A stretch of DNA of 64,000 nt, from assembly GCA_030601675.1 (NCBI GenBank), contig JAUWBN010000004.1, positions 2,113-66,112 on the forward strand, read 5' to 3'. Below the pieces are notes generated by a model. That model searched no databases. It saw nothing but the letters and a program-made list of their open reading frames with translations, and was not told where the DNA came from. The DNA is from Hadesarchaea archaeon. GTDB taxonomy: Archaea > Hadarchaeota > Hadarchaeia > Hadarchaeales > Hadarchaeaceae. Position numbers and translations under genes: made by a program. Below, in pieces: positions 6,260-52,717 of this stretch (position 1 is the first letter of the stretch; the number at the start of each line of letters is the position of its first letter).

Positions 6260-8182
6260 ATGCCAACCGCCGAGAAGGATCCCATAACCATAGCTCTAGC
6301 AGGCAATGCAAACGTCGGAAAGAGCGTTATCTTCAATTATTTTACCGGGCTGCACCAGCACATCGGAAACTGGCCTGGCAAGACGGTCGAAAAGGCGGAG
6401 GGGACGCTGCACTTTAAGGAGTACACGATAGATGTCCTCGACCTGCCTGGCATCTATTCGCTGTCCGTGTTCTCGATTGAGGAGCGGATCTCCCGGGAGT
6501 ACATCGCAATCGAAAAACCGGATGTCGTCATAAATATCATCGACGCCTCAGCACTTGAGAGAAACCTCTTCTTCACCCTCCAGCTACTCGAGCTGGAAAC
6601 GCCGATGATCGTGGCGCTAAATCAGGTGGATGCGGCTGAGGCGAAGGGGATAACCATTGATGTCCCCGAGCTGCAAAAATCCCTCGGCATACCCGTGATT
6701 CCGACCATCGCCACAAGGGGAACCGGCTTGGATAAGCTGCTGAATAAGGCCGTGAAGGTTGCAAAGAGCAAGAAGTTAGCGAAGCCAACCAGATACGGTA
6801 GGGAAATAGAAGAAAAAATCCGTAGGGTCACAAAGCTCGTGGAAAAGATACCCATTAAATATCCACCGAGATGGATTGCGATCAAACTCCTCGAAGGTGA
6901 TGAAGAGATCAGGAAAATTGTCGGCAGGGTTGGCCCAGAAATAGTCTCCAGCGCTGAAAGGCACGCTAGGGACTTGGAACGAATTCACGGTGAGCCATGT
7001 TCAATCATAATAACGTCGGAGCGCTACAACACCGCGAACAAAATCGCTAGAAAAAGCCAGCGAATCACCCCCCCTCGCGGGCCATCTCTTACGGAGAGAT
7101 TGGATGCGGTGACAACCCATCCCATCATGGGCTACCCAATCTTGATCGGCGTCATGCTCCTGGTCCTCTTCACAGTTTTTACCGTCGGGGGGTACTTGAG
7201 TGGGTTTTTTGAAGACGCGATGGAGCCAATTCAAGGTGCGTTTGGAGGTGGGGCGGGAGAGTTGATTGGAGGGGGACTACTCGGCGGGTTGATAGCCGGG
7301 GTAGCCATAGTGCTGCCATTCATCCTACCCTTTTACCTGATCTTGACCTTCTTGGAGGATTCCGGGTACATGCCTCGCGCCGCGTTCATGACCGATAGTC
7401 TCATGCACCGCATGGGAATCCACGGCAAAGCGTTCATCCCGTTCATACTCGGCTACGGCTGCAACGTTCCCGCGTGCCTTGGGTGCAGGGTAATGGAGAC
7501 CGAGCGGGAACGAACGATCTCCGCGTTCGTCGTGACGTTGGTGCCGTGCGCTGCCGTGACGGTCGTGGTCCTGGGTTTGGTCGGAGCCTTTGTGGGGATT
7601 CATTGGGCGCTGGCGTTATACCTGCTCAACCTGGTGATAATTTTCATCCTGGGGAGGGTCGCGTTCAAGGTCCTGCCGGGCGAACCCATGGGGCTGATCA
7701 TGGAGATGCCCCCCTACCGAAAGCCGCACGCGCGCTCGGTGCTCAAGGAAACCTGGATGAGGGTAAAGGACTTCGTTTACATCGCTTTCCCGCTGATAAT
7801 CGTTGGCAGCGTTGTGCTCACCGGACTAAAAGTTGGGGGCTTGCTGGAACCGATTGGAGATGCATTGAGCCCCGTCACGGTGGGGTGGCTGGGGCTACCC
7901 GCGATCACCGGCGTCCTGCTCATCTTTGGGATCCTCAGGAAGGAGCTCACGTTGGTCATGCTCGCGACCCTCATGGGCACGGCGAATTTTGCAACGGTTT
8001 TAACCCCAACTCAAATGATAGTGTTTGCCATAGTCGTGATGTACTACATCCCCTGCATCGCAACCATCGCCGCGTTGGTGAAGGAGCTGCGGTGGAAGAA
8101 GGCGGCTTACATCACGGTATTCGAGATAGCGTTCGCCCTCCTCCTGGGTGGCGTCGCGTTCAGGCTGCTGACGTTGGTGTAG
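6260..8182 (+). CDS. feoB: Ferrous iron transporter FeoB
   Basis: 640 aa. N-terminal G-domain ([28 protein letters not shown]) followed by a large polytopic permease with FeoB gate motifs ([20 protein letters not shown]). Confidence 0.93.
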
Positions 8183-8190
8183 GAAACAAC

Positions 8191-8207
8191 TAATAATGTG
8201 CAATACC
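8191..8207 (+). promoter_or_regulatory. Copy 1 of recurrent ATGTGCAAT box (upstream of or overlapping the DUF134-like gene start)
   Basis: TAATAATGTGCAATACC. Shares ATGTGCAATA with the box at 9460-9480 (see findings). Confidence 0.45.
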
Positions 8208-8578
8208 ACTTTAATTTGGGTGATAGCTTGTACCAGTGGCGTCGCGGTCGGCGAAGGGGACCCGGGAGGCCGATGAAACCTAGGTTCTTGGGCTTCAGGC
8301 CCGGAGCGATAACGTTTATGCCATCCGCTCCAATAGGGCCTCCAATCGCCGCGGGTGAGCCAATCTACATGACCTATGACGAGTACGAGGCCTTCCGCCT
8401 GATTTATCACGAAGGGCTGAACCAGGAGGAGGCCGCCAAGCGGATGAAAATTTCGCGTGGGACGGTGTGGCGCTGCTTAGAGAGCGCAAGGGATAAGGTT
8501 GCCTGCATGCTCGTCGAACGCCGCCCGCTTGTGGTTACGCCTGCGCCTCCTCGGCCTTCTGAGGAGACAGGCACTTGA
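8198..8578 (+). CDS. DUF134/UPF0251-like DNA-binding protein (putative regulator)
   Basis: 126 aa. GRRRGPGRPMKPRF…F.P, then MTYDEYEAFRLIYHEGLNQEEAAKRMKISRGTVWRCLESARDKVA, a sigma-70 region-4-like HTH typical of DUF134. The true start may be downstream (TTG about 8228). Confidence 0.75.
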   Translation: MQYHFNLGDSLYQWRRGRRRGPGRPMKPRFLGFRPGAITFMPSAPIGPPIAAGEPIYMTYDEYEAFRLIYHEGLNQEEAAKRMKISRGTVWRCLESARDKVACMLVERRPLVVTPAPPRPSEETGT

Positions 8579-9438
8579 GCCAAGTCGATGGGATGCGGCT
8601 CACGGTCTTAGTCGACGATTCCAAGAACCCAATCAGACCTGAACTCACCGCCAAGCATGGGCTCTCCTTTTTCATCGAGCTGAAAGCTGGTAGACACACA
8701 ACTAATTTGCTGATGGATACCGGACCGTCCGCAGATGTCGTCTTACAAAATGCTCAGAAGCTCGATGTCGATTTGAGAAAGGTTGATTCGATTGTGCTGA
8801 GCCACGGACACTACGACCATACCGGTGGGCTCTTGGGCATCCTAAAGCACATCGGCAAAAAAGTGCCTGTGATAGCCCATCCGGGGGCCCTTGAGGCAAA
8901 ATTCGCGGCGAAGAAGAAGCGTCTCAAAAAAGCTGGCATTCCTTTTCGGGTTTCAGAGTTGGAGAAATCAAGCGGTATCTTAACTCTAAAACGGGGGCCG
9001 ACTTCTAAAGCACCTGGGATTTGGGTGAGCGGGGAAATCAAAAGAGCCAGTCCATTTGAAAAGGTTAAGGGATTCAAAACCATGAGGAGGGGCAAGCTCG
9101 TCGATGATTACATGCCGGATGATCAGGCGCTTTTCGTGAAGGTCAAGGGAAAAGGGCTTGTGGTCGTCACGGGTTGCGCTCACGCGGGGTTGATAAACAC
9201 GATTGAGCAGGCAAAAAAGGTAACGGGTTCGAGCGGCGTGTATGCGGTCGTTGGTGGGTTTCACCTAGCTGGAGCAAGTGCGGGAAGGATAAGTGCAACC
9301 ATCGAGGAGCTCCAGAAAGCTGGCGTGAAAGTAGTCATGCCATGTCACTGCACGGGAAAGAAGGCAATCACAAAGTTCTCGAAGGTCTTTGGAAAAAAGT
9401 GCAACCAGCTTAGAACAGGTAATGTAGTTACATTCTAA
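8575..9438 (+). CDS. MBL-fold metallo-hydrolase (COG1237 / MJ0301-like)
   Basis: 287 aa. LTVLVDD…GLSFFIE…LMDTGPS, metal motif LSHGHYDHTGGL, later GCAHAG and GGFHL. 4-nt overlap with the upstream gene. Confidence 0.8.
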   Translation: MSQVDGMRLTVLVDDSKNPIRPELTAKHGLSFFIELKAGRHTTNLLMDTGPSADVVLQNAQKLDVDLRKVDSIVLSHGHYDHTGGLLGILKHIGKKVPVIAHPGALEAKFAAKKKRLKKAGIPFRVSELEKSSGILTLKRGPTSKAPGIWVSGEIKRASPFEKVKGFKTMRRGKLVDDYMPDDQALFVKVKGKGLVVVTGCAHAGLINTIEQAKKVTGSSGVYAVVGGFHLAGASAGRISATIEELQKAGVKVVMPCHCTGKKAITKFSKVFGKKCNQLRTGNVVTF

Positions 9439-9459: not shown

Positions 9460-9480
9460 ATTATGTGCAATAGCACAAAT
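9460..9480 (+). promoter_or_regulatory. Copy 2 of recurrent ATGTGCAAT box (palindromic TGTGC-AATA-GCACA), directly after TATA-like TTTTATAGA (9451-9459)
   Basis: ATTATGTGCAATAGCACAAAT, 15 nt upstream of ATG 9495. A GAGGTGG Shine-Dalgarno-like element lies between. Confidence 0.5.
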
Positions 9481-9494
9481 AGAGGTGGTAACAA

Positions 9495-9791
9495 ATGTGG
9501 GGGCCAGGTTTCGGCGGGGGTAGAGGCCGAGGCTGGGGCCGAGGTTGGTTTGGGCTTTGGCCGGGCAGAGGGCCTTTCAGCTATTTGCCGCCATGGCAGA
9601 GACCCAGGCGGATGTTTGGCTTCGGAAGAGGATTCGGCTGGGGGGTCAGATGGTTGGGCAATCCTTACGTCTGCGCCCGCTTCCCATGGCTTCCGAGGTG
9701 GTGGTGGGCTTACCCAGACGTCTACGGATCCCCTGGCTACGGATACCCCTACGCGGCGTATCCGCAGTACTCTTACCCGGGATACAGGTAA
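9495..9791 (+). CDS. RG/Trp/Tyr/Pro-rich low-complexity protein with GNPYVCARFPWLPRWWW motif (DUF5320-related N-terminal type)
   Basis: The frame was chosen because the motif is shared with ORF 18107. There are 4 differences over 51 nt, all synonymous third-position changes in this frame. SD-like GAGGTGG lies upstream. Confidence 0.7.
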   Translation: MWGPGFGGGRGRGWGRGWFGLWPGRGPFSYLPPWQRPRRMFGFGRGFGWGVRWLGNPYVCARFPWLPRWWWAYPDVYGSPGYGYPYAAYPQYSYPGYR

Positions 9792-9814
9792 ACAAACAAA
9801 AGGAGGTCAAAAGC

Positions 9815-10138
9815 ATGTGGTGGCCTAGAGGTCGGAGATGTTGGTGGTGGTACATGAATCCATACATGATGTATCCACCGTACCCGCCATACGTGCAAGC
9901 GCCACAGCAACCTTCGCAACCTGCGCAGCAACCCGCACAACAACCCCCAGCGGCACCTTACTACCCGCTCCCGCCGTTCATACCTCCTCCACCGACGCCC
10001 GAGCAAGAGATTGAATCGCTGGAGGCATACAAAGCTGAGATCGAAGAGGAGCTCAAAGGGATCGAGGCGAGGATAAAAGAGCTGAGGGAGTCCTTGGCCA
10101 AAGAATCCGGCGGTCAACCACCCGAAACCGGAAAGTGA
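9815..10138 (+). CDS. DUF5320-like protein (Trp/Pro/Gln-rich N-terminus, C-terminal coiled coil)
   Basis: ATG 9815 preceded by AGGAGG (9801-9806). MWWPRGRRCWWWYMNPYMMYPPYPPY…PEQEIESLEAYKAEIEEELKGIEARIKELRESL resembles the DUF5320 C-terminal coiled coil. Confidence 0.65.
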   Translation: MWWPRGRRCWWWYMNPYMMYPPYPPYVQAPQQPSQPAQQPAQQPPAAPYYPLPPFIPPPPTPEQEIESLEAYKAEIEEELKGIEARIKELRESLAKESGGQPPETGK

Positions 10139-10142
10139 TGAT

Positions 10143-10472
10143 TTGAAGCTCAAAGTGGCCGTTGCTACGAAGGGGCCCAAAGGTCTGAGGGACGAGGTAT
10201 CCTATGAATTCGGCAGGGCTCGAACTTTTACAGTTATCGACCTCGAAGGCGATCAGGTCAAAAACGTGAAAGTTGTGGATAATCCAGCAGCCTCGTATGA
10301 ATACGGGGCAGGCCCGATAGTCGTAAAGATGCTCGCTGACATGAAAATCGAAGTCGTGGTTGCGGGTGAATTCGGTCCAGGAGCTTCGGTGCTCCTCCGG
10401 GATAAAAATATTCGCGCGGCCAAGGTTAAAGCGGGGACAAACGTCAGTCGAGCTGTAAGTATAATTAGGTAG
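10143..10472 (+). CDS. NifX/NifB-C-terminal-like (dinitrogenase FeMo-cofactor biosynthesis domain, COG1433) protein
   Basis: 109 aa, TTG start. KVAVATKG…EFGRARTFTVIDLEGD…VKVVDNP…GAGPIVVKMLADMKIEVVVAGEFGPGA is the typical pattern of this small alpha/beta domain. Confidence 0.8.
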   Translation: MKLKVAVATKGPKGLRDEVSYEFGRARTFTVIDLEGDQVKNVKVVDNPAASYEYGAGPIVVKMLADMKIEVVVAGEFGPGASVLLRDKNIRAAKVKAGTNVSRAVSIIR

Positions 10473-10497
10473 GGTTGAGAGTAATTCGAGGTAACCC

Positions 10498-11385
10498 ATG
10501 AAAGTAGCAATACCTTCCAACACGCCAGGCGGACCAGATGCCGGAATATCTCCCCATTTTGGCAGATGTGATGTATTCACGGTAGTTGAAATTAAAAACG
10601 GCAAAATAGTGGGTGGGAGCACCATAGATAACCAAGGGGCGCATTTCGGTTTTGGGGCGACACCAGCAGAAATCTTGGCATCGAGCGGCATAGACGTGGT
10701 AGTGGCACAGGGCATGGGCCCCAAGGCTCTAGAGCTCTTGGGACAGAGTGGCATCAAAACATACTTTACCTCAGTCCAAACGGTCGGGGAGGCCGTGCGT
10801 GAGCTGATTGAGAGCAAGGCCAAGCTGGCCACCCCCGAGGAAGCCTGCAAAGAATCCAAGACAGCAACTGGACCACCCCAGACCCCTGTTATGCCTCCCT
10901 TTGGCCCCGGGATGGGCCGTGGAATGGGAAGAGGGATGGGCAGGGGGATGGAGCCCTATCCCTACGGACCCGCTTACCCACCGACGGCCCCTCCAATGCC
11001 GCATCCTCCACAACAAATGCCGAAGCCTTCTCCCCCACCGACAGGCCGCTTCAAGGTAGGTGTCGCAAGCCAAGGGCAAGGGGGACTCGACGACATGGTA
11101 TCGCCGATCTTTGGCAGGTCCCCAAGCTTTACCATCGTAGAAATAGAAGGGAAAGACATCAAAAACGTGAAAGTGGTGCCGAACCAATTCGTTTCTGCGC
11201 CTCGCGGTGTGGGAATCGCTGTGGTCCAGATGCTGGCAAGCGAAGGGGTGAAATTTATTTTGGCCGGACGATTTGGCCCTTGGGCATCCTCAACCTCTAG
11301 CCAATTTGATATACAAATGGTCATGGTTCCGCCTGGCGTGAAGATAAGGGACGCTATTAACCAGTACCTCATCGGTTCACGCTAG
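10498..11385 (+). CDS. Tandem NifX-like domain protein with Pro/Gly/RGM-repeat linker
   Basis: Two COG1433-like domains (MKVAIPSN…HFGRCDVFTVVEI…VVAQGMGPKA and FKVGVASQG…IFGRSPSFTIVEIEG…LAGRFGPWA). They are joined by the linker GPGMGRGMGRGMGRGMEPYPYGPAYPPTAPPMPHPPQQMP (about nt 10858-11046). Confidence 0.8.
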   Translation: MKVAIPSNTPGGPDAGISPHFGRCDVFTVVEIKNGKIVGGSTIDNQGAHFGFGATPAEILASSGIDVVVAQGMGPKALELLGQSGIKTYFTSVQTVGEAVRELIESKAKLATPEEACKESKTATGPPQTPVMPPFGPGMGRGMGRGMGRGMEPYPYGPAYPPTAPPMPHPPQQMPKPSPPPTGRFKVGVASQGQGGLDDMVSPIFGRSPSFTIVEIEGKDIKNVKVVPNQFVSAPRGVGIAVVQMLASEGVKFILAGRFGPWASSTSSQFDIQMVMVPPGVKIRDAINQYLIGSR

Positions 11386-11386
11386 G

Positions 11387-12292
11387 GTGCAGCGATTGAA
11401 GGAAATTGTGGTCGCTAGCGGGAAAGGTGGAGTCGGTAAAACCACGGTCGCTGCATCGCTCGCAGTTTTTTTGACCAAAGCTGGGACAAAAATCGTTGCG
11501 GCTGACGCAGATGTTGACGCACCAGATCTCTTGTTGGCACTGGGTGGCGGAAAGACAATTTCCTCAACCGAGATCGAAGCTTCAGAAAAAGCGGTGATCG
11601 ACGAGTCGAAATGCACAGGGTGTGGCAATTGCGTCAGTGCATGCCTGTTTGGCGCAATCGTGATGCAAAATCATCTACCAACCGTTATGCGACTCATGTG
11701 TGATGGCTGCGGTGTGTGCAAGGTTGTCTGTCCCGTCAATGCAGTTGAGGTGAAAAAAGCAGTGACGGGCACACTGAAAATCGAGGATACTAAGTACGGA
11801 TTCCCGTCGGTGACTGGGTACCTGAGGCTTGGCGAACATAATTCGGGACACCTTGTAGCGAGCGTAAAAAAATCCGGGCGGGAGACGGCTGAGGGCTTGG
11901 GGGCAAAGGCGCTCGTGGTCGACGCAGCACCGGGCATAGGTTGTCCAGTGATCGCTTCGATTTCGGGGGCCAGCTATGTCATTGCCGTTACCGAGCCGAC
12001 TCCTGCCGCCAAGCGGGATCTGGAACGCTTGGTCAAAGTAATAAAGCACTTCGGGGTCCCGGTGGGAGTGGTGATAAACAAGGCGAACCTTTCGGACGAC
12101 TTCAGGGTCACGCTTGAGGACTGGATAAAACATGAGCTAGGCTATCAGATTTTAGGCGAGATCCCCATCGACTACGAAGTTGTTAAAGCTTTGGTGAACA
12201 TGGCGCCGGTCACCGAGTTTAATCCAAATGCTGAAGCATCGAAGATCTTGACCGCGATAGCCAAACGCGTGAAGGATGAGGTCTCACCATGA
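11387..12292 (+). CDS. MinD/ParA-family P-loop ATPase with inserted 2x[4Fe-4S] ferredoxin domain (COG1149 type)
   Basis: GTG start. Deviant Walker A SGKGGVGKTTVAASLA. CTGCGNCVSACLFGAI and CDGCGVCKVVCPVNAV cluster motifs. DAAPGIGCPV Walker-B region. Confidence 0.85.
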   Translation: MQRLKEIVVASGKGGVGKTTVAASLAVFLTKAGTKIVAADADVDAPDLLLALGGGKTISSTEIEASEKAVIDESKCTGCGNCVSACLFGAIVMQNHLPTVMRLMCDGCGVCKVVCPVNAVEVKKAVTGTLKIEDTKYGFPSVTGYLRLGEHNSGHLVASVKKSGRETAEGLGAKALVVDAAPGIGCPVIASISGASYVIAVTEPTPAAKRDLERLVKVIKHFGVPVGVVINKANLSDDFRVTLEDWIKHELGYQILGEIPIDYEVVKALVNMAPVTEFNPNAEASKILTAIAKRVKDEVSP

Positions 12293-13242
12293 AATCTGGT
12301 GGGGAGGCATCAGCGAAATTACTCAGGAGAAAGCGCGTGGGCGTGCCCGTGATAGCAGTAACTGGTGGGAAGGGCGGCACGGGCAAAACCACGGTTGCGG
12401 TGAATTTAGCCGTGGGTCTGAGCATGAAAGGTTCCAAGGTCATGTTGGTTGACGCAGATGTTGATTGCCCTTGTTGCGCGATGTTGTTTGGAGCAGAACT
12501 GAGTAATGGCGAGGAGGTTAAAACATTCAAGCCTGTGATCGATGCTGCAAAATGCACTGGATGCGGAAAGTGTGTGGCGGTTTGTCATGACCACGCATTG
12601 GTGGGTCTTGAGGGGCAAGTCCCGTCACTTTTCGAAGAACTCTGCTCTGGGTGCAAAGCATGCCAGCTCGTCTGTGAAGTTGACGCCATAAAGAGTGGTC
12701 AGAAAGTTCTCGGTACCATCTACATCACAGATTCAAATGGGATTAAACTGGTGGTGGGCGAACTCAAACCGACCGAGCCGAGATCACCAATCGTGGCGCG
12801 CGCGACCATGCTCAGAGCCGCTGAGGAGCTTCGGAAGGACAAATACGACATCGTGATCGTGGACACTGCTCCGGGAATTCATAACGTGGTGGCTCAAGCC
12901 CTTTGGGAAGCCGACCTAGCGCTGGCTGTGACCGAGCCGACCCCGCTCGGAGCTCACGATCTGGGTTTCATGTTAGAGCTCACCGAGGAACTGGGGCTGC
13001 CGGCCGAGGTCATCCTGAACAAGGCGGATATCCCAGGCGGTTTGAAGGATGAAGTGGTGAAGACGAGTCGTGATCGGGGAGTTAAAATCGTTGCGGAGAT
13101 ACCGATGGACGAAGAGCTGTTGCGCTCCTACGTTTCGGGTGAGCCGCTTGTGAGAAAATCCCCTAAGAGTCCCTCTGCAGTTGCACTATTAGCTCTGGTC
13201 CCGCACATTCGTGAAATGTTTGTAAAAGGAGGTGAAACCTGA
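12289..13242 (+). CDS. MinD/ParA-family P-loop ATPase with inserted ferredoxin domain (second paralogue)
   Basis: TGGKGGTGKTTVAVNLA. CTGCGKCVAVCHDHAL and CSGCKACQLVCEVDAI. VDTAPGIHNVV. 4-nt overlap with the upstream paralogue. Confidence 0.85.
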   Translation: MKSGGEASAKLLRRKRVGVPVIAVTGGKGGTGKTTVAVNLAVGLSMKGSKVMLVDADVDCPCCAMLFGAELSNGEEVKTFKPVIDAAKCTGCGKCVAVCHDHALVGLEGQVPSLFEELCSGCKACQLVCEVDAIKSGQKVLGTIYITDSNGIKLVVGELKPTEPRSPIVARATMLRAAEELRKDKYDIVIVDTAPGIHNVVAQALWEADLALAVTEPTPLGAHDLGFMLELTEELGLPAEVILNKADIPGGLKDEVVKTSRDRGVKIVAEIPMDEELLRSYVSGEPLVRKSPKSPSAVALLALVPHIREMFVKGGET

Positions 13243-13481
13243 TGGCGCAACCACCCACCCCACCACCGCTGCCAACCAAAAAATTTCAATGTTTTGCATG
13301 TGGGAACATCATAGAGGTGCCTCGGGGCATGCCTAAGCCAGCGGCATGTCCTAGATGCGGTGCTCCGCTCGTGGCGATTCATCGTGTGGACAAGGGGCCG
13401 CCAGGTGGAAGAGGCGCGGGAAGGCGCGGTGCTGGTGGCCCTGGCGGAGGGCGCGGCAGGGGGCCACGTTGGTCTCAGTAG
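13242..13481 (+). CDS. Small C4 zinc-ribbon protein with Gly/Arg-rich tail
   Basis: 79 aa. ATG overlaps the upstream TGA by 1 nt and is preceded by GGAGGTGA. CFACG…x…CPRCG ribbon, then GGRGAGRRGAGGPGGGRGRGPRW. Confidence 0.55.
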   Translation: MAQPPTPPPLPTKKFQCFACGNIIEVPRGMPKPAACPRCGAPLVAIHRVDKGPPGGRGAGRRGAGGPGGGRGRGPRWSQ

Positions 13482-13582
13482 GCTTAGCCTCATTGAGATT
13501 TGAGATGCTGAGTTGATCTGGGTTAATCTAGAGGAAAAAATCAGGTGAAAATTAAAAACAGAACTTAGAGGAGGAAAGCTGA

Positions 13583-14308
13583 ATGAACGATCTTTTGTTA
13601 ATACTGTTCTTGATTTTTGTCGGGCAGACCCTAGGATCATTGATAGGTCTCATCAAAAAACCAGGCAAAGTTGCCTTATACGGTTCTTTATCTTTTGCTG
13701 CAAGCATGATGATTGTCATATCCTTTGTTCAGCTGATACCCGAAGGCTTAAAATATACGTCTTTATTTTTGATAGCAATCTCGTTTTTCGTTGGGATAGT
13801 AATAATGCGGATAGTGGATCGTTTATTACCCCACATCAATCCTGAATTAATTAAAAAAGAAAAGCCCTCTGTTAAGAGAAGCGTCACCATGTTGGTCATC
13901 GGCATAGCTTTGCACAATATTCCAGAAGGTTTGGCAATCGGGGCCGGTTTTGCAATAACTGCGGAATTGGGAATCGTTATTGCGTTAGCTATTGCAATCC
14001 AGGATCTTCCGGAAAACATTGCAACAATTGTTCCATTATACGGTTTGATCAAGAAAAAAGCAAAGTCATTTATCATCCTTATTGCCACGGTACTGTTCGA
14101 GGTGGCTGGATTTATCATAGGATATTTAGTCTTGGGAGGAGCATCGTTGAGCTGGCTGGGGGCTTCACTGGCGCTTGCAGCGGGGTTCATGGTTTACATC
14201 TCTGTCGAGGAATTGATACCTTCAGCACAGGTAAAGAAGTATCCCAAAATGGCGGCAGCGGCCATGGTTTTAGGTGTGATGTGTGTTCTATTAACAAGTT
14301 TGATATGA
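13583..14308 (+). CDS. ZIP-family (ZupT-like) divalent metal transporter
   Basis: 241 aa, polytopic. HNIPEGLAIG and QDLPENIA signature helices. GGAGGA SD upstream. Visibly AT-richer than the flanks. Confidence 0.85.
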   Translation: MNDLLLILFLIFVGQTLGSLIGLIKKPGKVALYGSLSFAASMMIVISFVQLIPEGLKYTSLFLIAISFFVGIVIMRIVDRLLPHINPELIKKEKPSVKRSVTMLVIGIALHNIPEGLAIGAGFAITAELGIVIALAIAIQDLPENIATIVPLYGLIKKKAKSFIILIATVLFEVAGFIIGYLVLGGASLSWLGASLALAAGFMVYISVEELIPSAQVKKYPKMAAAAMVLGVMCVLLTSLI

Positions 14309-14363
14309 TTAAATCGGTAAAAGAGAGATTAGATAGAAGTCTAGGATAATTCGGTGAATAAAA

Positions 14364-15203
14364 ATGAAGACCTATTTAGATTGCATCCCGTGCTTCGTGA
14401 GGCAGGCTTTGGAAGCGAGCAAGATGGCTACGGGGAACAAAATTAAACAGGAAAAAGCATTAAAGGCGGTTTTATCGGAGCTGGAGAAGACTTCATTAAA
14501 AAATAAGATACCGCCGCAGATCGCTCGCAAGGTTCATAGCATAGTCAGGGAGGTGACAAAAAACAATGACCCTTACAAGAAAGTGAAAGATAGATACAAC
14601 AGAAAAGCTCTAAAAATGTATCCAAGTCTTAAACGAAAGGTCGCCAAGTCTAAAGATAGATTGTTAACGGCAACGAAGCTCGCCATAGCTGGAAATATCA
14701 TCGACTTCGGCCCCGGTTCGAAATTCGATCTCGAGAAAACTGTAGAAGATGTTTTAATTCAGGATTTCGCGATAAATCATTTTAACCAGTTTAGAAAAGC
14801 GTTGAACAGTTCTAAAAAAATTTTATATCTGGGAGACAATGCCGGTGAAGTTGGTTTTGACCGCATTCTCCTAGAAGAATTGAAGGATAAAGAGATCACA
14901 TTTGTCGTCAAGGGAGGGCCCATCATTAATGATGCAACGGTTGAGGATGCGAGGTTTGTAGGGATAGACAAAATTGCGAAGATTGAAGTGGTTAGCAACG
15001 GTGATCCCGGCACGGGACCAGCTAGATGGTCGAAGGAGTTTATCAACAAACTGAAAGACGCGGATCTCGTGATCAGCAAGGGGCAAGGCAACTACGAGGC
15101 CTTAAGTGAAGTGGATGCAGATATCTTCTTCTTACTCAAGGTGAAGTGCCCATTGATTGCTAGGGACATAGGTGCCAAGGTCGGCGGTACCGTAATAAAA
15201 TGA
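14364..15203 (+). CDS. DUF89 (ARMT1-like damage-control phosphatase) family protein
   Basis: 279 aa. N-terminal CIPCFVRQALEA, later IAGNIIDFG, LGDNAGEVGFD and KGQGNYEAL motifs typical of DUF89. Confidence 0.8.
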   Translation: MKTYLDCIPCFVRQALEASKMATGNKIKQEKALKAVLSELEKTSLKNKIPPQIARKVHSIVREVTKNNDPYKKVKDRYNRKALKMYPSLKRKVAKSKDRLLTATKLAIAGNIIDFGPGSKFDLEKTVEDVLIQDFAINHFNQFRKALNSSKKILYLGDNAGEVGFDRILLEELKDKEITFVVKGGPIINDATVEDARFVGIDKIAKIEVVSNGDPGTGPARWSKEFINKLKDADLVISKGQGNYEALSEVDADIFFLLKVKCPLIARDIGAKVGGTVIK

Positions 15204-15228
15204 TGCTTTAGCTCACTAGGCGATCGGG

Positions 15229-16404
15229 ATGTTAGGAGTCAAGGCCGAAGCCATCACCGCGGAAGAAATGGCCAAGGTAGATCAAAAAGCAGCGGAATTC
15301 GGGATTCCCAGCATCCTGCTTATGGAAAACGCCGGGGGGGTCGTCGCAAGGATCATAACAGAAAAATTCGGTACCAAATTGAAGGTGGCAGTTTTTGTTG
15401 GCACGGGCAACAATGGCGGGGATGGGCTCGTCGCTATCAGACACTTGATGAGTAAAAGGGCCAAAGTAGATGTCTTCTTGATCGGAGATCCGGGGGATAT
15501 CCGTACTGAAGAAGCGCGCCTGAACTGGAATGTGATACAAAAAATGAGGCAAAATGTCAAGATCCATGTGGTTAAAAGCATCTCCGACCTTAAGGGGGCA
15601 GCGCGCTACCTAAAGCGTGCAGATGTGATTATCGATGCTATGCTTGGGACTGGCCTAAAGGGTCCGCTCAGGGAGCCTTTCGCTTCCGCGGCGCGCTTGG
15701 TGAACGTGTCGAAGCCCCCCGTAGTTTCAATAGACTCGCCCACCGGGTTGGATCCATCGACTGGCGAGGTACACGGGGTCGCGGTCAAGGCAACTTATAC
15801 TGTGACTTTTCACAGGATGAAAATGGGATTTCTCAAGGCGAAGGGGTACGTGGGCGAGGTCATAGTAGCTGATATCGGGATCCCTCAGGAAGTCGAGGCT
15901 GCAGCCATCGGCAAGCGCCGGCGTTTACAGTGGAGAGTTGGGAAGGCACCGAAAGAAACCCCGAAGTTAGTGAGCGCGTGTCTTTTGGGAATTAACTGTA
16001 GGTATGACGGTCAAAACAACCTTAACGAGAAAGTGATGCGGCTGGTCGAAAAAGAGGTGCTGATCCCCGTCTGTCCAGAGCAGCTTGGCGGGCTCGGAAC
16101 GCCAAGGGAGCCCATGGGGGTAATCGGAGGAGGGGGTTCGGAGGTTTTAGACGGGAAGGCGAGGGTTATAAACAGGAGCAATAAGGACGTGACGGAGAAC
16201 TTGGCGAGAGGCGCGGAGGAAACTTTGAAGATCGCGAGGTCGTCAGGCGCGAGGGAAGCGATCTTTAAGGCGAGAAGTCCCTCCTGCGGGTGCGGAAAAA
16301 TTCACGATGGGACGACTCCCAACAAACTCATCGAGGGGGACGGGGTCACGGCTGCATTGTTGAAGAGGAACGGCATCCACGTAATCACGGAGGATGGCCT
16401 TTGA
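15229..16404 (+). CDS. NAD(P)H-hydrate epimerase (YjeF N-terminal domain) fused to a DUF523 (TudS-like) domain
   Basis: N-terminal half LMENAG…FVGTGNNGGDGLVAIRHL…IIDAMLGTGL (YjeF_N). C-terminal half from about aa 247 VSACLLGINCRYDGQNN…PVCPEQLGGLGTPREP…RSPSCG (DUF523 pattern). Confidence 0.8.
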   Translation: MLGVKAEAITAEEMAKVDQKAAEFGIPSILLMENAGGVVARIITEKFGTKLKVAVFVGTGNNGGDGLVAIRHLMSKRAKVDVFLIGDPGDIRTEEARLNWNVIQKMRQNVKIHVVKSISDLKGAARYLKRADVIIDAMLGTGLKGPLREPFASAARLVNVSKPPVVSIDSPTGLDPSTGEVHGVAVKATYTVTFHRMKMGFLKAKGYVGEVIVADIGIPQEVEAAAIGKRRRLQWRVGKAPKETPKLVSACLLGINCRYDGQNNLNEKVMRLVEKEVLIPVCPEQLGGLGTPREPMGVIGGGGSEVLDGKARVINRSNKDVTENLARGAEETLKIARSSGAREAIFKARSPSCGCGKIHDGTTPNKLIEGDGVTAALLKRNGIHVITEDGL

Positions 16405-16872
16405 TTACACCTTGCCCTCAAGCCAGCCAATTTTAACGTTATTTTTCTGGTCAAACTTTGGAACATATGGTTTGATGTCCAAGAGAGGGGTGCCGTCGAG
16501 CATGTCGATACCCCTCACCTTCAAGATATTTCCTTCGCGTTCCAACAGCTCCACGATAGTGAGCCCTATTTGATTCGGCCTGTTCGGGGATCTCGTGGCG
16601 AAAAGTCCGCGCGGGGCATCGTCTAAATAAGGTTTTACCAGAAGCCCAAACGAATTCAGGTAATGTTCTTTTTTTATCGAGCGCTTGACAGACTTGTGAA
16701 ACATGTACAAAATTATGAGGTGGGAGAAACCCTCGACATCCTTCAGCCCCTCCTCGTACTCCTTAAAAACTTCGATTTCACCGATTTCCTTCGATTTGTA
16801 TGCTTGGTGGGGCGCTTCTCCGTCCTTTTTGTATGGCGTGTGGATTATCCCTATGGGTTTTAATTCCCTCAT
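16405..16872 (-). CDS. TsaA/TrmO-like (YaeB, UPF0066) tRNA methyltransferase family protein
   Basis: Core MRELKPIGIIHTPY…FSHLIILYMFH…FATRSPNRPNQIGLTIVELLEREGNILKVRGIDMLDGTPLLDIKPY. The internal ATG 16872 was chosen, giving an ATGA overlap with the upstream MBL gene. The track ORF extends to 16956. Confidence 0.8.
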   Translation of the reverse strand: MRELKPIGIIHTPYKKDGEAPHQAYKSKEIGEIEVFKEYEEGLKDVEGFSHLIILYMFHKSVKRSIKKEHYLNSFGLLVKPYLDDAPRGLFATRSPNRPNQIGLTIVELLEREGNILKVRGIDMLDGTPLLDIKPYVPKFDQKNNVKIGWLEGKV

Positions 16873-17516
16873 TCTATCACCAGCCCCACCCCACACCTCA
16901 CGTATTGTTTCGGGAACGCGCGCGCTAACTCCCTTTTGTATGAGGTACAGTGGCATGGAGAAATCAATTTAACTCTTTTTAGAATGTCGAAATCACTGAA
17001 TCCATGGAAACCACCGATGACGCCGTATATCTCGCCAAACTTTGATGCCGCAATTACGATTCTATGCATCCCAGAATGAGCGCAGCCCGTAATCACAAAT
17101 ACGCCTCTTTTGTTCAAACAGATTAATGATTGTTCTTTAATGCAAGTGCCTAGCTCGCCTGTCGTAAATACATCCTTACGTATCTGCATTGGTTTTCGAG
17201 CCTCAACCAGTTTTGTTTTTGCCGGAATTTGATTTTTTAACCACTTGGAAAACGATGTCAAGGCGTACACAGAAAGGTCTTGGTTTTCTTCAATCAGATC
17301 CGATAAACCACCAGTATGATCCCCATGCCCGTGCGACAATACAACGGATCTTATATCGCTCGGATCGATGCCCAATTTTTCCATGTTGTCTAATAAGGCA
17401 ACGCCATCGCCGCCAGTGTCGAATAAAATGTCATTATCGATTAAACAGGAAAAACCCCAGCCCGCCGTCAATCCTCTCTTTAACACTTCGTTGTCGTAAA
17501 CTACTGTTATTTTCAT
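16869..17516 (-). CDS. MBL-fold metallo-hydrolase (COG1237-type), second paralogue
   Basis: MKITVVYDN…GWGFSCLIDNDILFDTGG…VLSHGHGDHTGGL…GCAHSG…GGFHG. The internal ATG at 17516 was preferred over the track start 17564. Confidence 0.8.
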   Translation of the reverse strand: MKITVVYDNEVLKRGLTAGWGFSCLIDNDILFDTGGDGVALLDNMEKLGIDPSDIRSVVLSHGHGDHTGGLSDLIEENQDLSVYALTSFSKWLKNQIPAKTKLVEARKPMQIRKDVFTTGELGTCIKEQSLICLNKRGVFVITGCAHSGMHRIVIAASKFGEIYGVIGGFHGFSDFDILKRVKLISPCHCTSYKRELARAFPKQYVRCGVGLVIE

Positions 17517-17563
17517 GCCCGCAAGTCTCCTTTCGTAATTTTGTACAGTAAAGTTTATATACA

Positions 17564-17585
17564 ATTATGTGCATATGCCCATAAT
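17564..17585 (+). promoter_or_regulatory. Copy 3 of recurrent ATGTGCA(A/T)AT box, after TATA-like TTTATATA (17554-17561), in a divergent promoter region
   Basis: ATTATGTGCATATGCCCATAAT (imperfect palindrome). Located between the MBL gene (minus) and the DUF5320-like pair (plus). Confidence 0.45.
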
Positions 17586-17590
17586 AGGAG

Positions 17591-18106
17591 ATGGGGAAAA
17601 TGGCTTACGGTCAGGGAGGTTGGAGAAGGAGAAGAAGGAACATGTATTACCTCACCGGCCTGCCGGGATGGATGAGGTTCGGATATTCACCAGGATGGGT
17701 AGGCAGAAGCCCCACAGGACTGCCACCAACCGCTCAATATTTGATGCAGACGGGACAGGTGCCTCAACCCACACCTTACACGGCACAGCCACCAGCGCAA
17801 ATGGTGGTTCCTACACATGAGAACTGCGCTAATTTTGGGAATGGGTTCTGCCAATTATACGGTGCTGCCGTGGATCCTAGCGGCAGCGCCTGCCCAAGCT
17901 TCACACCGAAAAGTTCCGCTTCAGCGCCACAGACACCACCAACGCAACCCATGTTTCAAGCACCTGCCAGTTTTCCTCCAGCACAAATGTCCCAGATACC
18001 CAAAGAACAGGAAATTCAGGTGTTGGAGGGTCAGGCAAGAATGTTTGATCAACAACTAGAACAAATCAAAAGAAGGATTGAAGAACTCAAAAGGGAGGTG
18101 AAATGA
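17591..18106 (+). CDS. DUF5320-like protein (Arg-rich N-terminus, Cys motif, Pro/Gln-rich spacer, C-terminal coiled coil)
   Basis: 171 aa. GGWRRRRRNMYYLTGLPGWMRFGYSPGW…CANFGNGFCQLYG…CPSF…IPKEQEIQVLEGQARMFDQQLEQIKRRIEELKRE. The start may be ATG 17600. Confidence 0.65.
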   Translation: MGKMAYGQGGWRRRRRNMYYLTGLPGWMRFGYSPGWVGRSPTGLPPTAQYLMQTGQVPQPTPYTAQPPAQMVVPTHENCANFGNGFCQLYGAAVDPSGSACPSFTPKSSASAPQTPPTQPMFQAPASFPPAQMSQIPKEQEIQVLEGQARMFDQQLEQIKRRIEELKREVK

Positions 18107-18616
18107 ATGCCGTTCGGCTGGGGAAGAGGATTTGGTAGAGGATTTGGTAGAGGATTCGGATGGGGGGGCAACCCCTACGTCTGCGCGCGGTTCCCATGGC
18201 TTCCGAGGTGGTGGTGGACTGGAATGTACGGCCCCACGACACCTTTTACGGGAGCACCGGGGATGCCCTACACGTCGTATGGCCAATATGGCACGCCAGG
18301 GATGCCTTATTCGCCAGACTACACATCGCCTTATGGCCAATATGGCACGTACGCAACGTCAGCCCCAACAGCTGCACCATGGACAACCTATACACCGTAC
18401 TACGCGCCACCCTACAGCACGTATGCACCACCGGCCACAGCAATGCCGAGCATGACCTACCCATCGCCATATACACCATCACCTTACCCAACAGGCGCGG
18501 AGATCCCTCAAATTCCGAAGGAACAAGAAAGACAAATGCTTGAAGGTCAGGCGACAGCACTTCAGCAGCAATTAGACCAGATCAAGAAGAGGCTTGAAGA
18601 GCTAAGCAAAATGTAG
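18107..18616 (+). CDS. RGF-repeat / GNPYVCARFPWLPRWWW-motif protein with Tyr/Pro/Thr-rich spacer and DUF5320-like coiled coil
   Basis: ATG immediately after the upstream TGA, with a GGGAGGTGA SD. MPFGWGRGFGRGFGRGFGWGGNPYVCARFPWLPRWWW…IPKEQERQMLEGQATALQQQLDQIKKRLEELSK. Paralogous to 9495-9791 (N-terminus) and to 17591-18106 (C-terminus). Confidence 0.7.
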   Translation: MPFGWGRGFGRGFGRGFGWGGNPYVCARFPWLPRWWWTGMYGPTTPFTGAPGMPYTSYGQYGTPGMPYSPDYTSPYGQYGTYATSAPTAAPWTTYTPYYAPPYSTYAPPATAMPSMTYPSPYTPSPYPTGAEIPQIPKEQERQMLEGQATALQQQLDQIKKRLEELSKM

Positions 18617-18705: not shown

Positions 18706-18722
18706 CTTATTGTGCAATCGCC
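18706..18722 (+). promoter_or_regulatory. Copy 4 of recurrent box (TTGTGCAAT variant) upstream of the Mrp/NBP35 gene
   Basis: CTTATTGTGCAATCGCC, 16 nt upstream of ATG 18738. Confidence 0.4.
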
Positions 18723-18737
18723 GAAAAGGAATTTTAA

Positions 18738-19598
18738 ATGGGAGTGAAGCAAGTGGAAGGAAGGATGAAGGAAATACAGGAGCAGGAGAAGCGTATCAAA
18801 ATACGGATGGCCAAAATCAAACATAAACTGGTGATACTAAGCGGAAAGGGCGGAGTCGGCAAGAGTACCATCACCGCTAATTTAGCCATCGCATTGGCAC
18901 GCAAGGGTCACAAGGTGGGTGTTTTAGATATTGACATTCACGGCCCAAGCATCCCCAAAATACTCGGCATCAGGGGACAGGGGTTGACCACAGGGCGGCT
19001 CGAAGGCCTAGGTATATTCCCGGCCAAAGGACCGCTCGACACCAAGGTCATCTCCATGGATTTCCTCCTTCCGAGCGATGAAACTCCAGTCATCTGGCGC
19101 GGCCCCATGAAGACGGGCGCGATCAGGCAGTTTCTTGCGGACGTAGCATGGGGCAACCTAGATTTTCTGCTTGTAGATGTACCTCCAGGCACTGGCGATG
19201 AACCCCTTAGTTTGATGCAGTTGTTGCCCGGCATCGACGGCGTTATTATTGTGACTGCTCCTTCTGAGGTTTCCCAAATCGTCGTCAAGAGGGCCGTCGG
19301 ATTTACAAGAGAGTTGCACGTGCCTGTACTAGGTATCGTTGAAAACATGAGCGGATTTATCTGTCCAAAGTGCGGGGCAGAAGTTGATATTTTTGGAAGC
19401 GGAGGAGGTCAAAAAATAGCGGGAGAACTGGGAGTGCCATTCCTCGAAAGGATTCCAATCGATTCAAAGATATGCGAGGATTCGGACAGAGGGACACCCT
19501 TCATCATCGAGCATGCCGAAACTCCAGCAGCCAAGGCATTCATGCGAGTGGTGGACAAAGTGGAGGAATTTTTAAAACAGCAGGGGGCACGAGCTTGA
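18738..19598 (+). CDS. Mrp/NBP35/ApbC-family Fe-S cluster carrier ATPase
   Basis: LSGKGGVGKSTITANLA (deviant Walker A), DIDIHGPSIP, VDVPPGTGDE, and the ICPKCG CxxC motif characteristic of the family. Confidence 0.88.
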   Translation: MGVKQVEGRMKEIQEQEKRIKIRMAKIKHKLVILSGKGGVGKSTITANLAIALARKGHKVGVLDIDIHGPSIPKILGIRGQGLTTGRLEGLGIFPAKGPLDTKVISMDFLLPSDETPVIWRGPMKTGAIRQFLADVAWGNLDFLLVDVPPGTGDEPLSLMQLLPGIDGVIIVTAPSEVSQIVVKRAVGFTRELHVPVLGIVENMSGFICPKCGAEVDIFGSGGGQKIAGELGVPFLERIPIDSKICEDSDRGTPFIIEHAETPAAKAFMRVVDKVEEFLKQQGARA

Positions 19599-20353
19599 TC
19601 GTCGACGAGTTATTGGGTCTGATCGAGGAGCGGAGAAGCCAGCTAGAAGACCTGACGCTCTCGAGGGTATGCGTGAGTCTCTGCTATACTGCGGTGATGC
19701 TAGATAACGGCTACGTTGGGCTCTGTCACACGCCTACTGAGGACATTGCACACACTCATTGGGGCCGCAGGCGGGACTTCCACGGCTTCAAGGCCTTGGA
19801 AATCACCCGCCTGGCGAATTCGCTTGACATGATTGAGAAGACAGTTGGCATCGCGACGTTGAATGCCCTCTCACAGTACCTGATGGACTCCGAAGGTTAC
19901 GAGCGGCAGTTTGGAATAGACGCCTTTGATGCGATAGATGTGAGGAGGGAAGACAGCGTCGCAGTGGTTGGGTACATAAGGCCCCTAGTCGGGAAGCTGA
20001 GGGCAAAGGCCCGCGAAGTCCACGTTTTCGAGCGCAACCCCCAGTTGAGGGGGGATGCCCTACCTGATACTTTTGTCGACTCGATATTGCCGAAAGCGGA
20101 TGTCGTGGTTATAAGCGGGTCGAGCTTGGTCAACGGAACGATTGATAGGTTGCTCGAGCTATCCAAAAGAGCTAGATTCGTGGTTTTTGCGGGGCCAACA
20201 GCCAGCACTTTGCCAGGGCCTCTTTTCAAGCGGGGTGTAAACATCGTGGCGGGTGTTCGCGCGAAAGGTCCTAAGGTGATGGATGCAGTAGCCGAGGCCA
20301 AACCATTTGTGGCATTCAAAGAGCTTGTGGAGAAGTATACTTTAAAAAGATGA
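19595..20353 (+). CDS. DUF4213/DUF364 ('putative heavy-metal chelation' Rossmann-like) protein
   Basis: VAVVGYIRPLV…VHVFERNP…LPKADVVVISGSSLVNGTIDRLLEL…VVFAGPTASTLPGPLFKRGVNIVAGV matches the DUF364 pattern. The TTG start proposed at 19595 overlaps the Mrp TGA (TTGA). The track ORF begins at 19472 inside Mrp. Confidence 0.75.
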   Translation: MIVDELLGLIEERRSQLEDLTLSRVCVSLCYTAVMLDNGYVGLCHTPTEDIAHTHWGRRRDFHGFKALEITRLANSLDMIEKTVGIATLNALSQYLMDSEGYERQFGIDAFDAIDVRREDSVAVVGYIRPLVGKLRAKAREVHVFERNPQLRGDALPDTFVDSILPKADVVVISGSSLVNGTIDRLLELSKRARFVVFAGPTASTLPGPLFKRGVNIVAGVRAKGPKVMDAVAEAKPFVAFKELVEKYTLKR

Positions 20354-52604: not shown

Positions 52605-52617
52605 TTATGAGATTTGG
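52539..52617. repeat. Direct repeat copy A (5' end plus leader of the type IIG gene)
   Basis: GTATTTCTCAAGAAGTCCCTTTATCTTCTGTTTGGCGTCTTCCTTGTTCACCATAGTTTGCCCCATTTATGAGATTTGG aligns with 53695-53773. Most positions are identical by eye, with one 1-nt indel. Confidence 0.7.
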
Positions 52618-52717
52618 AATTTTTAGGTATTAAACTGCTCTATTTCGTAAAGTCTAATCCTCGAACGATTTTTTGCGTAGGAAACTAATTATATTGCAAA
52701 ACCTATTAGACTAAACT

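Follow-up and report, generated by a model that had tools for sequence, protein, structure and literature searches.

Four RG-rich proteins built from shared modules

The window analysed here, a stretch of 64,000 nucleotides (nt) of Hadesarchaea archaeon contig JAUWBN010000004.1 (positions 2,113 to 66,112 of the forward strand), carries two loci with a tandem pair of small open reading frames (ORFs) each, called ORFs A and B at the first locus and ORFs C and D at the second (Table 1). A preliminary description of the sequence had taken them for four low-complexity paralogues with Arg-Gly (RG) repeats, shuffled domains and a shared Cys/Trp block under purifying selection, and had related them to DUF5320 (PF17253), a family without known function. 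Pairwise similarity was significant between ORFs A and D through the Cys/Trp block (E 9e-11), and through the coiled coil between ORFs C and D (E 5e-14) and between ORFs B and C (E 3e-6), and was not significant for A-B, A-C and B-D. The four ORFs are therefore not simple paralogues, and what relates them is a chain of shared modules.

Module definitions were drawn from approximately 400 relatives. M0 consists of RG(F/W/Y/M) repeats, M1 is the LPPWQRP block (GPWPGRGPFSYLPPWQRPGW), M2 reads GNPYPF-C-[RA][WRN]-FPWLPRWWW-[TA]G[MI]YGPITP, M3 (RNMYYLTGLPGWMRFGYSPGWVGRSPTGLPPTAQYL.Q.GQ.PQ) is the canonical archaeal DUF5320 N-terminus, and M4 (C-x7-C-x13-CP) is the Hadarchaeota-type insert of ORF C; the remaining modules are P/Y/A/T-rich linkers and one or two C-terminal coiled coils. 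The GLPGWMRFGYSPGW block is one module of this family. ORF A consists of M0, M1, M2 and a Y/P tail and lacks a coiled coil, ORF B of a short RGRRCWWW head, a P/Q linker and a coiled coil, ORF C of M3, M4 and a coiled coil, and ORF D of M0, M2, a long linker and a coiled coil. The RG(W/F) repeats, P/Y/T/Q-rich spacers and coiled coils previously described were all present, and the proposed domain shuffling was borne out by single proteins elsewhere in which the modules are recombined: a Woesearchaeota protein in L050 combines M3, M2, M4 and a coiled coil, and M3 and M2 occur together in eight proteins (L-numbers are labels of retrieved genome loci, L124-L132 being metagenome contigs). M1, near-invariant in an alignment of 33 ORF A-type proteins, was found in 53 of 98 ORF D relatives.

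The M4 insert (ENCANFGNGFCQLYGAAVDPSGSACPSF) was observed in Hadarchaeota-type DUF5320 proteins and also in the M3+M2 protein of L050 and a NifX tail of L065. Its Cys spacing in ORF C required a small correction, to C79-x7-C87-x13-C101-P; judged from the sequence it is a possible metal or cluster site, and AlphaFold predicted only a weak beta-hairpin for it (predicted local distance difference test score (pLDDT) 53-61). The AlphaFold predictions otherwise consisted of disorder and a single C-terminal helix, outside which confidence was low (mean pLDDT 49 for ORF D and 56 for ORF C, with helix 138-170 of the latter at pLDDT 84-91), and a PDB profile search returned generic coiled coils only and no relative. 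The GRGF, GRGW and GMGR units are coded by perfect or near-perfect 12-nt tandem repeats (18125-18156, 9525-9548 and 10909-10951), the copy number of which differs among orthologues, ORF D relatives ranging from 147 to 187 amino acids and L054 having an extra GQYGTPGMPYSPDYTSPY unit; this variable repeat number points to slippage-driven length variation.

Reading frame and selection

The peptide GNPYVCARFPWLPRWWW is encoded by both 9657-9707 (ORF A) and 18167-18217 (ORF D), and nucleotide comparison of these 51-nt blocks revealed, as previously reported, four differences (T/C, T/C, C/G and C/G), every one at a synonymous third position. Of the 153 single substitutions that the block could undergo, just 30 are synonymous, which gives P ~0.0015 for four out of four. 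In four of the five other frames the same differences produce five amino-acid changes, and in frame -1 they produce two, but with a stop codon. The ratio of non-synonymous to synonymous substitution rates (dN/dS) against orthologues from other Hadarchaeota genomes (L001, L004, L016, L021, L032, L033, L054, L075 and L117) was 0.13-0.16, 0.09-0.18, 0.13-0.33 and 0.13-0.39 for ORFs A, B, C and D, respectively. A GGAGG-type ribosome-binding site precedes each of the four, the ATG of ORF D abuts the stop codon of ORF C, and ORF D is 98% identical to proteins from two Hadesarchaea metagenome-assembled genomes. ORFs A-D are real genes in the stated frames and are under purifying selection; the frame proposed earlier was upheld by dN/dS, the other-frame comparison and the ribosome-binding sites, and selection on the peptide by dN/dS and by the conservation of the motif, Cys included, in Archaea and Bacteria alike (below). 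That they are instead non-coding, G-rich repeat DNA giving overlapping open frames by chance, to which the three overlapping ORFs at each locus and the 12-nt tandem repeats might be taken to point, is refuted by the dN/dS of 0.09-0.39 and the comparison with other frames, has a ribosome-binding site at each ORF and homologues in the hundreds against it, and retains practically no probability.

Conservation of the Cys/Trp motif across Archaea and Bacteria

Because protein searches rely on a word index and are biased towards motif-bearing matches, GTDB species-representative genomes were scanned with a degenerate DNA pattern for FPWLPRWWW alone, with the Cys not required. The pattern matched at least 120 species genomes spread over many phyla of anaerobic archaea and bacteria, against a chance expectation of ~0.1 matches (our own estimate, from the information content of the pattern relative to the size of the collection); one match (L120, Hydrogenophaga) was chance-like. 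The archaeal matches listed came from Bathyarchaeia, Hadarchaeota, Hydrothermarchaeota, Methanocellales, Methanophagales/ANME-1, Syntrophoarchaeum, Thermoplasmata, Woesearchaeota, Asgard, Brockarchaeota and Nitrososphaeria/Caldarchaeales, and the bacterial ones from Aerophobetes, Calescamantes, Dehalococcoidia, WOR-3, Omnitrophota, Aminicenantes, Stahlbacteria, Latescibacterota, Planctomycetia, Clostridia/Peptococcaceae, Acetothermia and Thermodesulfobacteriota. Among the matches listed, a Cys stood three residues before the Phe of FPWLPRWWW in 120 of 121 ORFs (116 of 116 non-redundant blocks), and 113 of the 121 ORFs contained exactly one Cys. From Archaea to Bacteria, there is essentially no variation in the M2 motif or its Cys; conservation of the block and of the single Cys, for which the preliminary description had proposed an alignment check, thus extends far beyond this genome.

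Membership in the DUF5320 family

The PF17253 model aligned with the coiled coil only (profile positions 62/63-99) in ORFs B, C and D, at 27.8 bits for ORF D, above the gathering score of 27, and below that score for ORF B (21.2 bits) and ORF C (20.2 bits). ORF A matched neither PF17253 nor any other Pfam model, no NCBIfam model matched any of ORFs A-D, and the M1 and M2 blocks of the window proteins were unmatched by the PF17253 model. Among relatives, many of the 774 found for ORF C carry PF17253 or are named DUF5320 domain-containing protein by NCBI, most of the 98 ORF D relatives have PF17253, and those of ORF A include PF17253 proteins by way of the M1 and M2 blocks. At the level of clusters, proteins of the M1+M2 type are rare, with 88 of 1.84 billion 50%-identity representatives at E <= 1e-3, nearly all of them 53-176 amino acids in length.

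The layout of DUF5320, an RG-rich N-terminal part followed by a C-terminal coiled coil (EQE..LE.QA..LE.QL..IKKRLEEL), is present in ORFs C and D and in a short form in ORF B; ORF A lacks the coiled coil, as do its orthologues P0031 and P0087. The assignment to DUF5320 thus stood by the homology of ORF C and D relatives and by layout, whereas the formal test was thin, only ORF D reaching the gathering score and only the coiled coils aligning with the model. ORFs A-D are Hadarchaeota members of a DUF5320 module family that includes a coiled-coil-less subtype captured by no model. The view that such composition is unusual for archaeal cytoplasmic proteins was not sustained, such proteins being common in anaerobic archaea and occurring in many bacteria as well. 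In the literature searched, DUF5320 appeared only in two incidental mentions, with no experiment on, or function for, any DUF5320 protein.

Linkage and fusion to NifX-like genes

Gene neighbourhoods were counted over 120 genome loci, and the counts are lower bounds, the loci being 8-kb blocks or running to contig ends. In 90 of the 120 loci a NifX-like gene and the M2 gene were no more than 2 kb apart; the NifX-like gene followed on the same strand in 86 of 92 loci, at 300 bp or less in 53, and it started at most 1.5 kb downstream of the M2 gene in 62 of the 81 loci with that much sequence. Genes for DUF134, MinD-Fer4 (MinD-type ATPase with a ferredoxin domain) and Mrp were near the M2 gene in 56, 40 and 21 loci, respectively, an M3-type gene directly adjoined 45 of the 120 M2 genes, and ORF D-type genes were followed by Mrp in Hadarchaeota. 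Two independently retrieved contigs had the same gene linkage.

Fusions link the two families as well, and many of the NifX-like proteins in these neighbourhoods have a DUF5320-type tail. Eight out of ten neighbouring NifX-like proteins tested contained both PF02579 (the NifX-like domain) and PF17253, at 40-53 bits with near-full profile coverage, in the order NifX domain, (GMGR)n, Pro-rich stretch and DUF5320 coiled coil (Table 1); no description of a NifX domain with an RG/DUF5320 coiled-coil tail was found in the literature searched. Given these fusions and the linker of the two-domain NifX-like protein in the window, RG segments and DUF5320 coiled coils are common to the whole system. The Zn-ribbon protein of the window, which has a Gly/Arg-rich tail (GGRGAGRRGAGGPGGGRGRGPRW) and an L001 orthologue annotated PF27353 (MJ0401), probably belongs to this system too, because the ribbon is fused to NifX-RG tails in other genomes. 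A rule by which the coiled coil is present either on the M2 protein or on the NifX-like protein was considered and is not claimed, the trend being weak (13/25 versus 25/25).

A candidate operator

The promoters of ORFs A and C share a block of ~30 nt containing the palindrome TGTGC-N4-GCACA, placed between the TATA-like box and the start codon in the DUF5320 operons, which is exact before ORF A and has one mismatch before ORF C (Table 1), with weaker copies before DUF134 (8197-8210) and Mrp (18711-18724). Over the genome loci, 63 of 127 palindrome sites (at most one mismatch) fell within the 150 nt upstream of M2 genes, a density of 3.69 per kb compared with 0.159 per kb overall (23-fold enrichment). 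At least one site was present in 34 of 114 M2 upstream regions, often as two or three sites around the TATA box. The enrichment extended across archaeal phyla (M2 upstream regions in L006, L013, L015, L021, L022, L032, L037, L039, L048 and L057). The palindrome is probably the operator of a dedicated regulator, and the linked DUF134 helix-turn-helix protein would be a candidate for binding it.

The DUF134 ORF as listed (8198-8578) has a GTG start, which the palindrome copy overlaps, and an RG-rich leader. Residue 23 is the first that the Pfam match covers, and translation probably starts from the ATG at nt 8273 (M26). The RG-rich N-terminus, probably untranslated given where the Pfam match begins, was dropped as evidence.

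Comparison with IssA and with the orange protein cluster

The genes around ORFs A-D (FeoB, DUF134, metallo-beta-lactamase (MBL)-fold protein, NifX-like, MinD-Fer4 and Mrp) match those of two systems, the issA locus of Thermococcales and the orange protein (ORP) cluster of Desulfovibrio. IssA (SipA, PF2025) of Pyrococcus furiosus is an iron-sulfur storage protein that forms cytoplasmic thioferrate nanoparticles; it consists of a NifX-like domain and a 70-residue tail, Pro-rich and then Arg/Trp/Gly-rich, which holds the only Cys of the protein and has been proposed to wrap an anionic (FeS2-)n chain (PMC5524996). The gene set shared with the window is the one that elemental sulfur induces in Thermococcales (PMC6981617). 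P. furiosus issA had no match in the genome contigs searched with a published primer, and IssA orthologues were instead recovered from metagenomes by a degenerate N-terminal pattern. Nine Thermococcales-type orthologues were obtained (L124-L132), each followed by a second NifX-like gene, with tails made up of a P/Y/A linker, (GWGRG)n and then LGYCPWTG.P.RR.W.AR.FGWW.

The resemblance concerns gene content, composition and layout. Like the window, contigs with issA contain FeoB, DUF134, DUF364, another NifX-like gene and a gene for an MBL-fold protein that scores 160-170 bits against the window MBL, and the window NifX-like domains are 33-37% identical to the IssA domain (35-37% for that at 10143-10472). 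ORF A (98 amino acids; G 22%, R 12%, W 11%, Y 11%, P 14%, one Cys, no Lys, net charge +11) closely parallels the IssA tail of L127 (98 amino acids; G 23.5%, R 12%, W 7%, Y 8%, P 14%, one Cys, net charge +12), and G, R, W, Y, F and P together make up 61-79% of ORFs A, B and D compared with 25% of neighbouring proteins. A cationic, Gly/aromatic-rich, Pro-containing, single-Cys tail of the IssA type is thus found in ORF A, and in ORF D in the part outside the coiled coil. The points of resemblance in the IssA tail are a Pro/Tyr-rich stretch followed by (G-W/F-G-R-G)n repeats, exactly one Cys followed by Pro-Trp, a terminal Trp cluster, and a near absence of Lys, Asp and Glu with a net charge between +7 and +12, close to the composition of ORF A. 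The earlier label 'prion- or FG-like' was a loose one, since Q amounts to 2-11%, there are no FG repeats and M1, M2 and M3 are sharply conserved; the closest documented composition is the Arg/Gly/Trp tail of IssA.

Unlike IssA, ORFs A-D contain no PF02579 domain, which is encoded separately at 10143-10472 and 10498-11385, so that the 'tail' is a gene of its own upstream of the NifX-like gene, and ORFs B, C and D add a coiled coil. Cys and Trp share a chain with the NifX domain in IssA, whereas M2 loci split them: 57 of 62 NifX tails in these loci have no Cys and their median Trp content is 0%, the M2 protein supplying both. IssA binds thioferrate and forms particles of 20-300 nm. The suggestion that the Cys of M2 replaces one missing from the partner NifX domain was not supported, as the downstream NifX domains have 0-3 Cys, in both FGRC and FGRA forms.

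In Desulfovibrio, the ORP cluster encodes the MinD-ferredoxin ATPases Orp3 and Orp4, the NifX-like orange protein Orp8 and Orp9, an Mrp fused to a Di-Nase domain, and its proteins bind and exchange Fe-S clusters and are physically complexed with each other (PMC6345978). The window and related loci likewise combine, in one neighbourhood, NifX-like proteins and Mrp/NBP35 with a pair of MinD-type ATPases that contain 2x[4Fe-4S] inserts. The window thus resembles the clusters of D. vulgaris and D. alaskensis in its two MinD-ferredoxin ATPases (Orp3/Orp4), NifX-like 'Di-Nase' (Orp8), Mrp/NBP35 carrier (Orp9), dedicated regulator and restriction to anaerobes. It differs in that its Mrp (286 amino acids, ParA/NUBPL domain only) lacks the fused Di-Nase domain, that the ORP cluster is sigma-54 dependent whereas the window has an archaeal TATA box and a palindromic operator candidate, and that DUF5320 proteins have not been described as ORP components. 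Window NifX-like proteins matched the NCBIfam MrpORP model in the Di-Nase part only, far below cut-off.

Eukaryotic RGG/RG and Tyr/Gly-rich domains of FUS-type condensates are also similar in having RG repeats next to aromatics, predicted disorder and multivalency, a resemblance that is compositional. Unlike them, ORFs A-D are prokaryotic, are tied to metal-cluster genes and have sharp linear motifs with a single invariant Cys.

Proposed function and alternative explanations

ORFs A-D very probably belong to the NifX-like/MinD-Fer4/Mrp metal-sulfide system. Their role within it is harder to assign; a tentative reading, held at slightly short of an even chance, is that they are trans-acting, IssA-tail-like scaffold or ligand subunits linked by coiled coils, which wrap or cap Fe-S material. 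They would then be small, largely disordered subunits of this anaerobe-specific system, DUF5320-type 'tail' modules produced as separate polypeptides, whose polycationic aromatic RG(F/W) repeats and P/Y-rich linkers would wrap or coat anionic iron-sulfide material, maybe thioferrate-like (FeS2-)n chains or clusters that NifX-like domains encoded nearby would hold. The invariant Cys of C-x2-FPWLPRWWW could be a thiolate ligand or cap for an Fe-S species, or the motif could be a docking peptide for the NifX-like partner, and the C-terminal coiled coils of ORFs B, C and D may join several tails, and elsewhere NifX domains too, into multivalent assemblies. We infer from these comparisons that ORFs A-D bind Fe-S material, hetero-oligomerise and have a role in storage, detoxification or delivery. 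The original suggestion that they may be scaffold or metal-binding proteins working with the ATPases and NifX-like proteins is well supported at the level of gene linkage and NifX-DUF5320 fusions.

Several points weigh against wrapping or capping of Fe-S material by ORFs A-D. ORFs A-D resemble IssA in composition and architecture and not by demonstrable homology: an M2 profile scored no better on IssA tails than on shuffled ones (1134-1818 of 2000 shuffles reached the score), and homology of the C-x2-FPWLPRWWW block with the IssA tail was rejected. An M2-NifX fusion was absent from the 146 relatives, 88 representative clusters and 120 loci examined. At least 12 residues invariant across Bacteria and Archaea are unlike a purely electrostatic wrapper indifferent to position; the extreme conservation of M2, and of M3 as well, points to a specific partner or ligand. 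A related orange protein binds a Mo/Cu-sulfide cluster, so that the cargo need not be Fe-S. The role of IssA itself is debated, as cells without IssA still form thioferrate-like iron (PMC8219758).

The alternative that survives best, though we consider it unlikely, is that M2 and M3 are docking or adaptor motifs for one globular partner (NifX-like, MinD-Fer4 or Mrp), with coiled coils that assemble or regulate the ATPase/cluster-carrier complex, RG parts that are flexible linkers, and no metal held. Motif conservation as extreme as this is typical of protein-protein interfaces, the gene order is fixed (M2 then NifX-like in 62 of 81 complete cases, and ORF D-type genes then Mrp in Hadarchaeota), and ORP proteins are physically complexed (PMC6345978). 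Docking leaves unexplained, however, why a single Cys is invariant and why RG repeats turn up again in NifX tails, the Zn-ribbon protein and the inter-domain linker; no M2 fusion to any globular partner was seen among 146 relatives or 120 loci, and the explanation overlaps with a scaffold or ligand role rather than excluding it.

A membrane or polar tether, in which the Arg/Trp-rich FPWLPRWWW would insert at the membrane interface and anchor MinD-like or Mrp machinery there or at the cell pole, is improbable. The motif does resemble the Arg/Trp-rich membrane peptides tritrpticin and indolicidin, and the proteins are enriched in Trp and Arg. MrpORP is located at the cell pole and Orp3/Orp4 have a MinD-type amphipathic helix (PMC6345978), yet no transmembrane segment or signal peptide was seen in ORFs A-D by sequence inspection (no predictor was run), linkage is tightest with the soluble NifX-like genes and not with the ATPases, the invariance of the Cys is unexplained, and IssA, of the same composition, forms particles in the cytoplasm (PMC5524996). 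Lower again in probability are RGG-type binders of RNA or DNA, for example of G-quadruplexes (G4s), with a regulatory role alongside the DUF134 helix-turn-helix protein; a motif scan flagged DUF5320 and DUF134 proteins of M. mazei as possible G4 binders (PMC7565180) and a conserved operator candidate lies upstream of the genes, but nothing beyond a motif match underlies the G4 claim, the DUF134 protein itself accounts better for the operator, and the RG module is fused to NifX-like metal-cluster domains with no known nucleic-acid role.

An extension of the scaffold and ligand reading, a 'split IssA', is speculative and in our view rather doubtful: DUF5320 and NifX-like proteins would together build a widespread proteinaceous iron-sulfide nanoparticle or condensate in many anaerobes, archaeal and bacterial, that are still uncultured, in which the M2 peptide would nucleate or cap thioferrate-like chains, the RG repeats coat them and the coiled coils crosslink them. 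If so, mineral-like Fe-S storage or detoxification would be a general trait of anaerobes and not a peculiarity of Thermococcales. IssA is to our knowledge the only iron-sulfide storage protein described, with a distribution thought to be uneven, and the storage, detoxification and trafficking of iron and sulfide in strict anaerobes are poorly understood. If the scaffold and ligand reading is true, IssA-type Fe-S storage would reach Bathyarchaeia, Hadarchaeota, ANME/Methanophagales, Asgard archaea and many candidate bacterial phyla, and the proteins would exemplify, in prokaryotes, a disordered RG-rich scaffold that serves a defined inorganic client. Tying DUF5320 to NifX-like proteins in three ways, by gene order (in >100 species), domain fusions and IssA-tail-like composition, yields a testable hypothesis, for which the 12-residue Cys/Trp motif, invariant across Archaea and Bacteria, is an obvious target for mutagenesis.

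Gene map of the cluster and other features of the window

The cluster begins with FeoB, DUF134, the MBL-fold gene, ORFs A and B, the NifX-like gene and the two-domain NifX-like gene, continues with two MinD-Fer4 genes, the Zn ribbon with its RG tail, ZIP, DUF89 and YjeF_N/DUF523, and ends with TrmO and MBL (both on the opposite strand), ORF C, ORF D, Mrp and DUF4213/DUF364.

Table 1. Positions of ORFs A-D, their modules, linked genes and NifX-like fusion proteins (window coordinates unless preceded by a locus label)
Feature	Position	Strand	Description and basis
ORF A	9495..9791	+	98 amino acids; RG(W) repeats, M1, RGF, M2 Cys/Trp block, Y/P/G-rich tail; dN/dS
M1 block of ORF A (WPGRGPFSYLPPWQRP)	9558..9605	+	Near-invariant; alignment of 33 ORF A-type proteins
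M2 block of ORF A (GNPYVCARFPWLPRWWW)	9657..9707	+	Nucleotide, frame and block comparisons
ORF B	9815..10138	+	107 amino acids; begins MWWPRGRRCWWWYMNPY, P/Q-rich linker, coiled coil at ~residues 62-96 (nt 9998-10102)
ORF C	17591..18106	+	171 amino acids; canonical DUF5320 type; M3 (nt 17639-17767)
Cys insert M4 of ORF C, C79-x7-C87-x13-C101-P	17825-17896 (residues 79-102)	+	Sequence
Coiled coil of ORF C	18002-18100	+	AlphaFold helix 138-170
ORF D	18107..18616	+	169 amino acids; (GRGF)3, M2, P/Y/T-rich spacer of ~100 amino acids, coiled coil (nt 18518-18610)
M2 block of ORF D (GNPYVCARFPWLPRWWW)	18167-18217	+	Comparison with ORF A
Palindrome TGTGCAATAGCACA, candidate operator	9464..9477	+	Between TATA-like box and ORF A start
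Palindrome TGTGCATATGCCCA, one mismatch	17568..17581	+	5' of ORF C, within the ~30-nt block common to the ORF A promoter
NifX-like (Nitro_FeMo-Co) protein	10143..10472	+	Tail-less, Cys-free; directly 3' of ORFs A and B
Two-domain NifX-like protein	10498..11385	+	(GMGR)n and Pro-rich linker (GMGRGMGRGMGRGM/Pro-rich); Pfam, composition, repeats
Two MinD/ParA-type ATPases	11387..13242	+	Inserted 2x[4Fe-4S] ferredoxin domain (Orp3/Orp4-like); domain search; PMC6345978
Zn-ribbon protein	13242..13481	+	RG-rich C-terminal tail; domain search, composition
Mrp/NUBPL-type Fe-S carrier ATPase	18738..19598	+	Directly 3' of ORFs C and D
DUF4213/DUF364	19472-20353	+	After Mrp
FeoB, DUF134 regulator, MBL-fold protein	6260..9438	+	Upstream part of cluster
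NifX-DUF5320 fusions	L014, L024, L026, L027, L030, L049, L068, L106		Pfam
NifX tail with ORF C-type three-Cys insert and coiled coil	L065:2372-3097		
NifX tail with RG stretch and Zn ribbon	L077:6250-6801, L085:5965-6585		Ribbon as in window 13242-13481

Between the two DUF5320 loci, ORF 15229-16404 codes for a YjeF_N domain (NAD(P)HX epimerase) fused to DUF523/2-thiouracil desulfurase, a fusion that is kept in L001. Elsewhere in the window, positions 49950-53581 form an island of low GC content (35-39%, compared with ~55% elsewhere), which codes for a fused restriction-modification enzyme of the Eco57I/MmeI type (884 amino acids) and a 287-amino-acid ORF without a Pfam match, and which was probably acquired horizontally.

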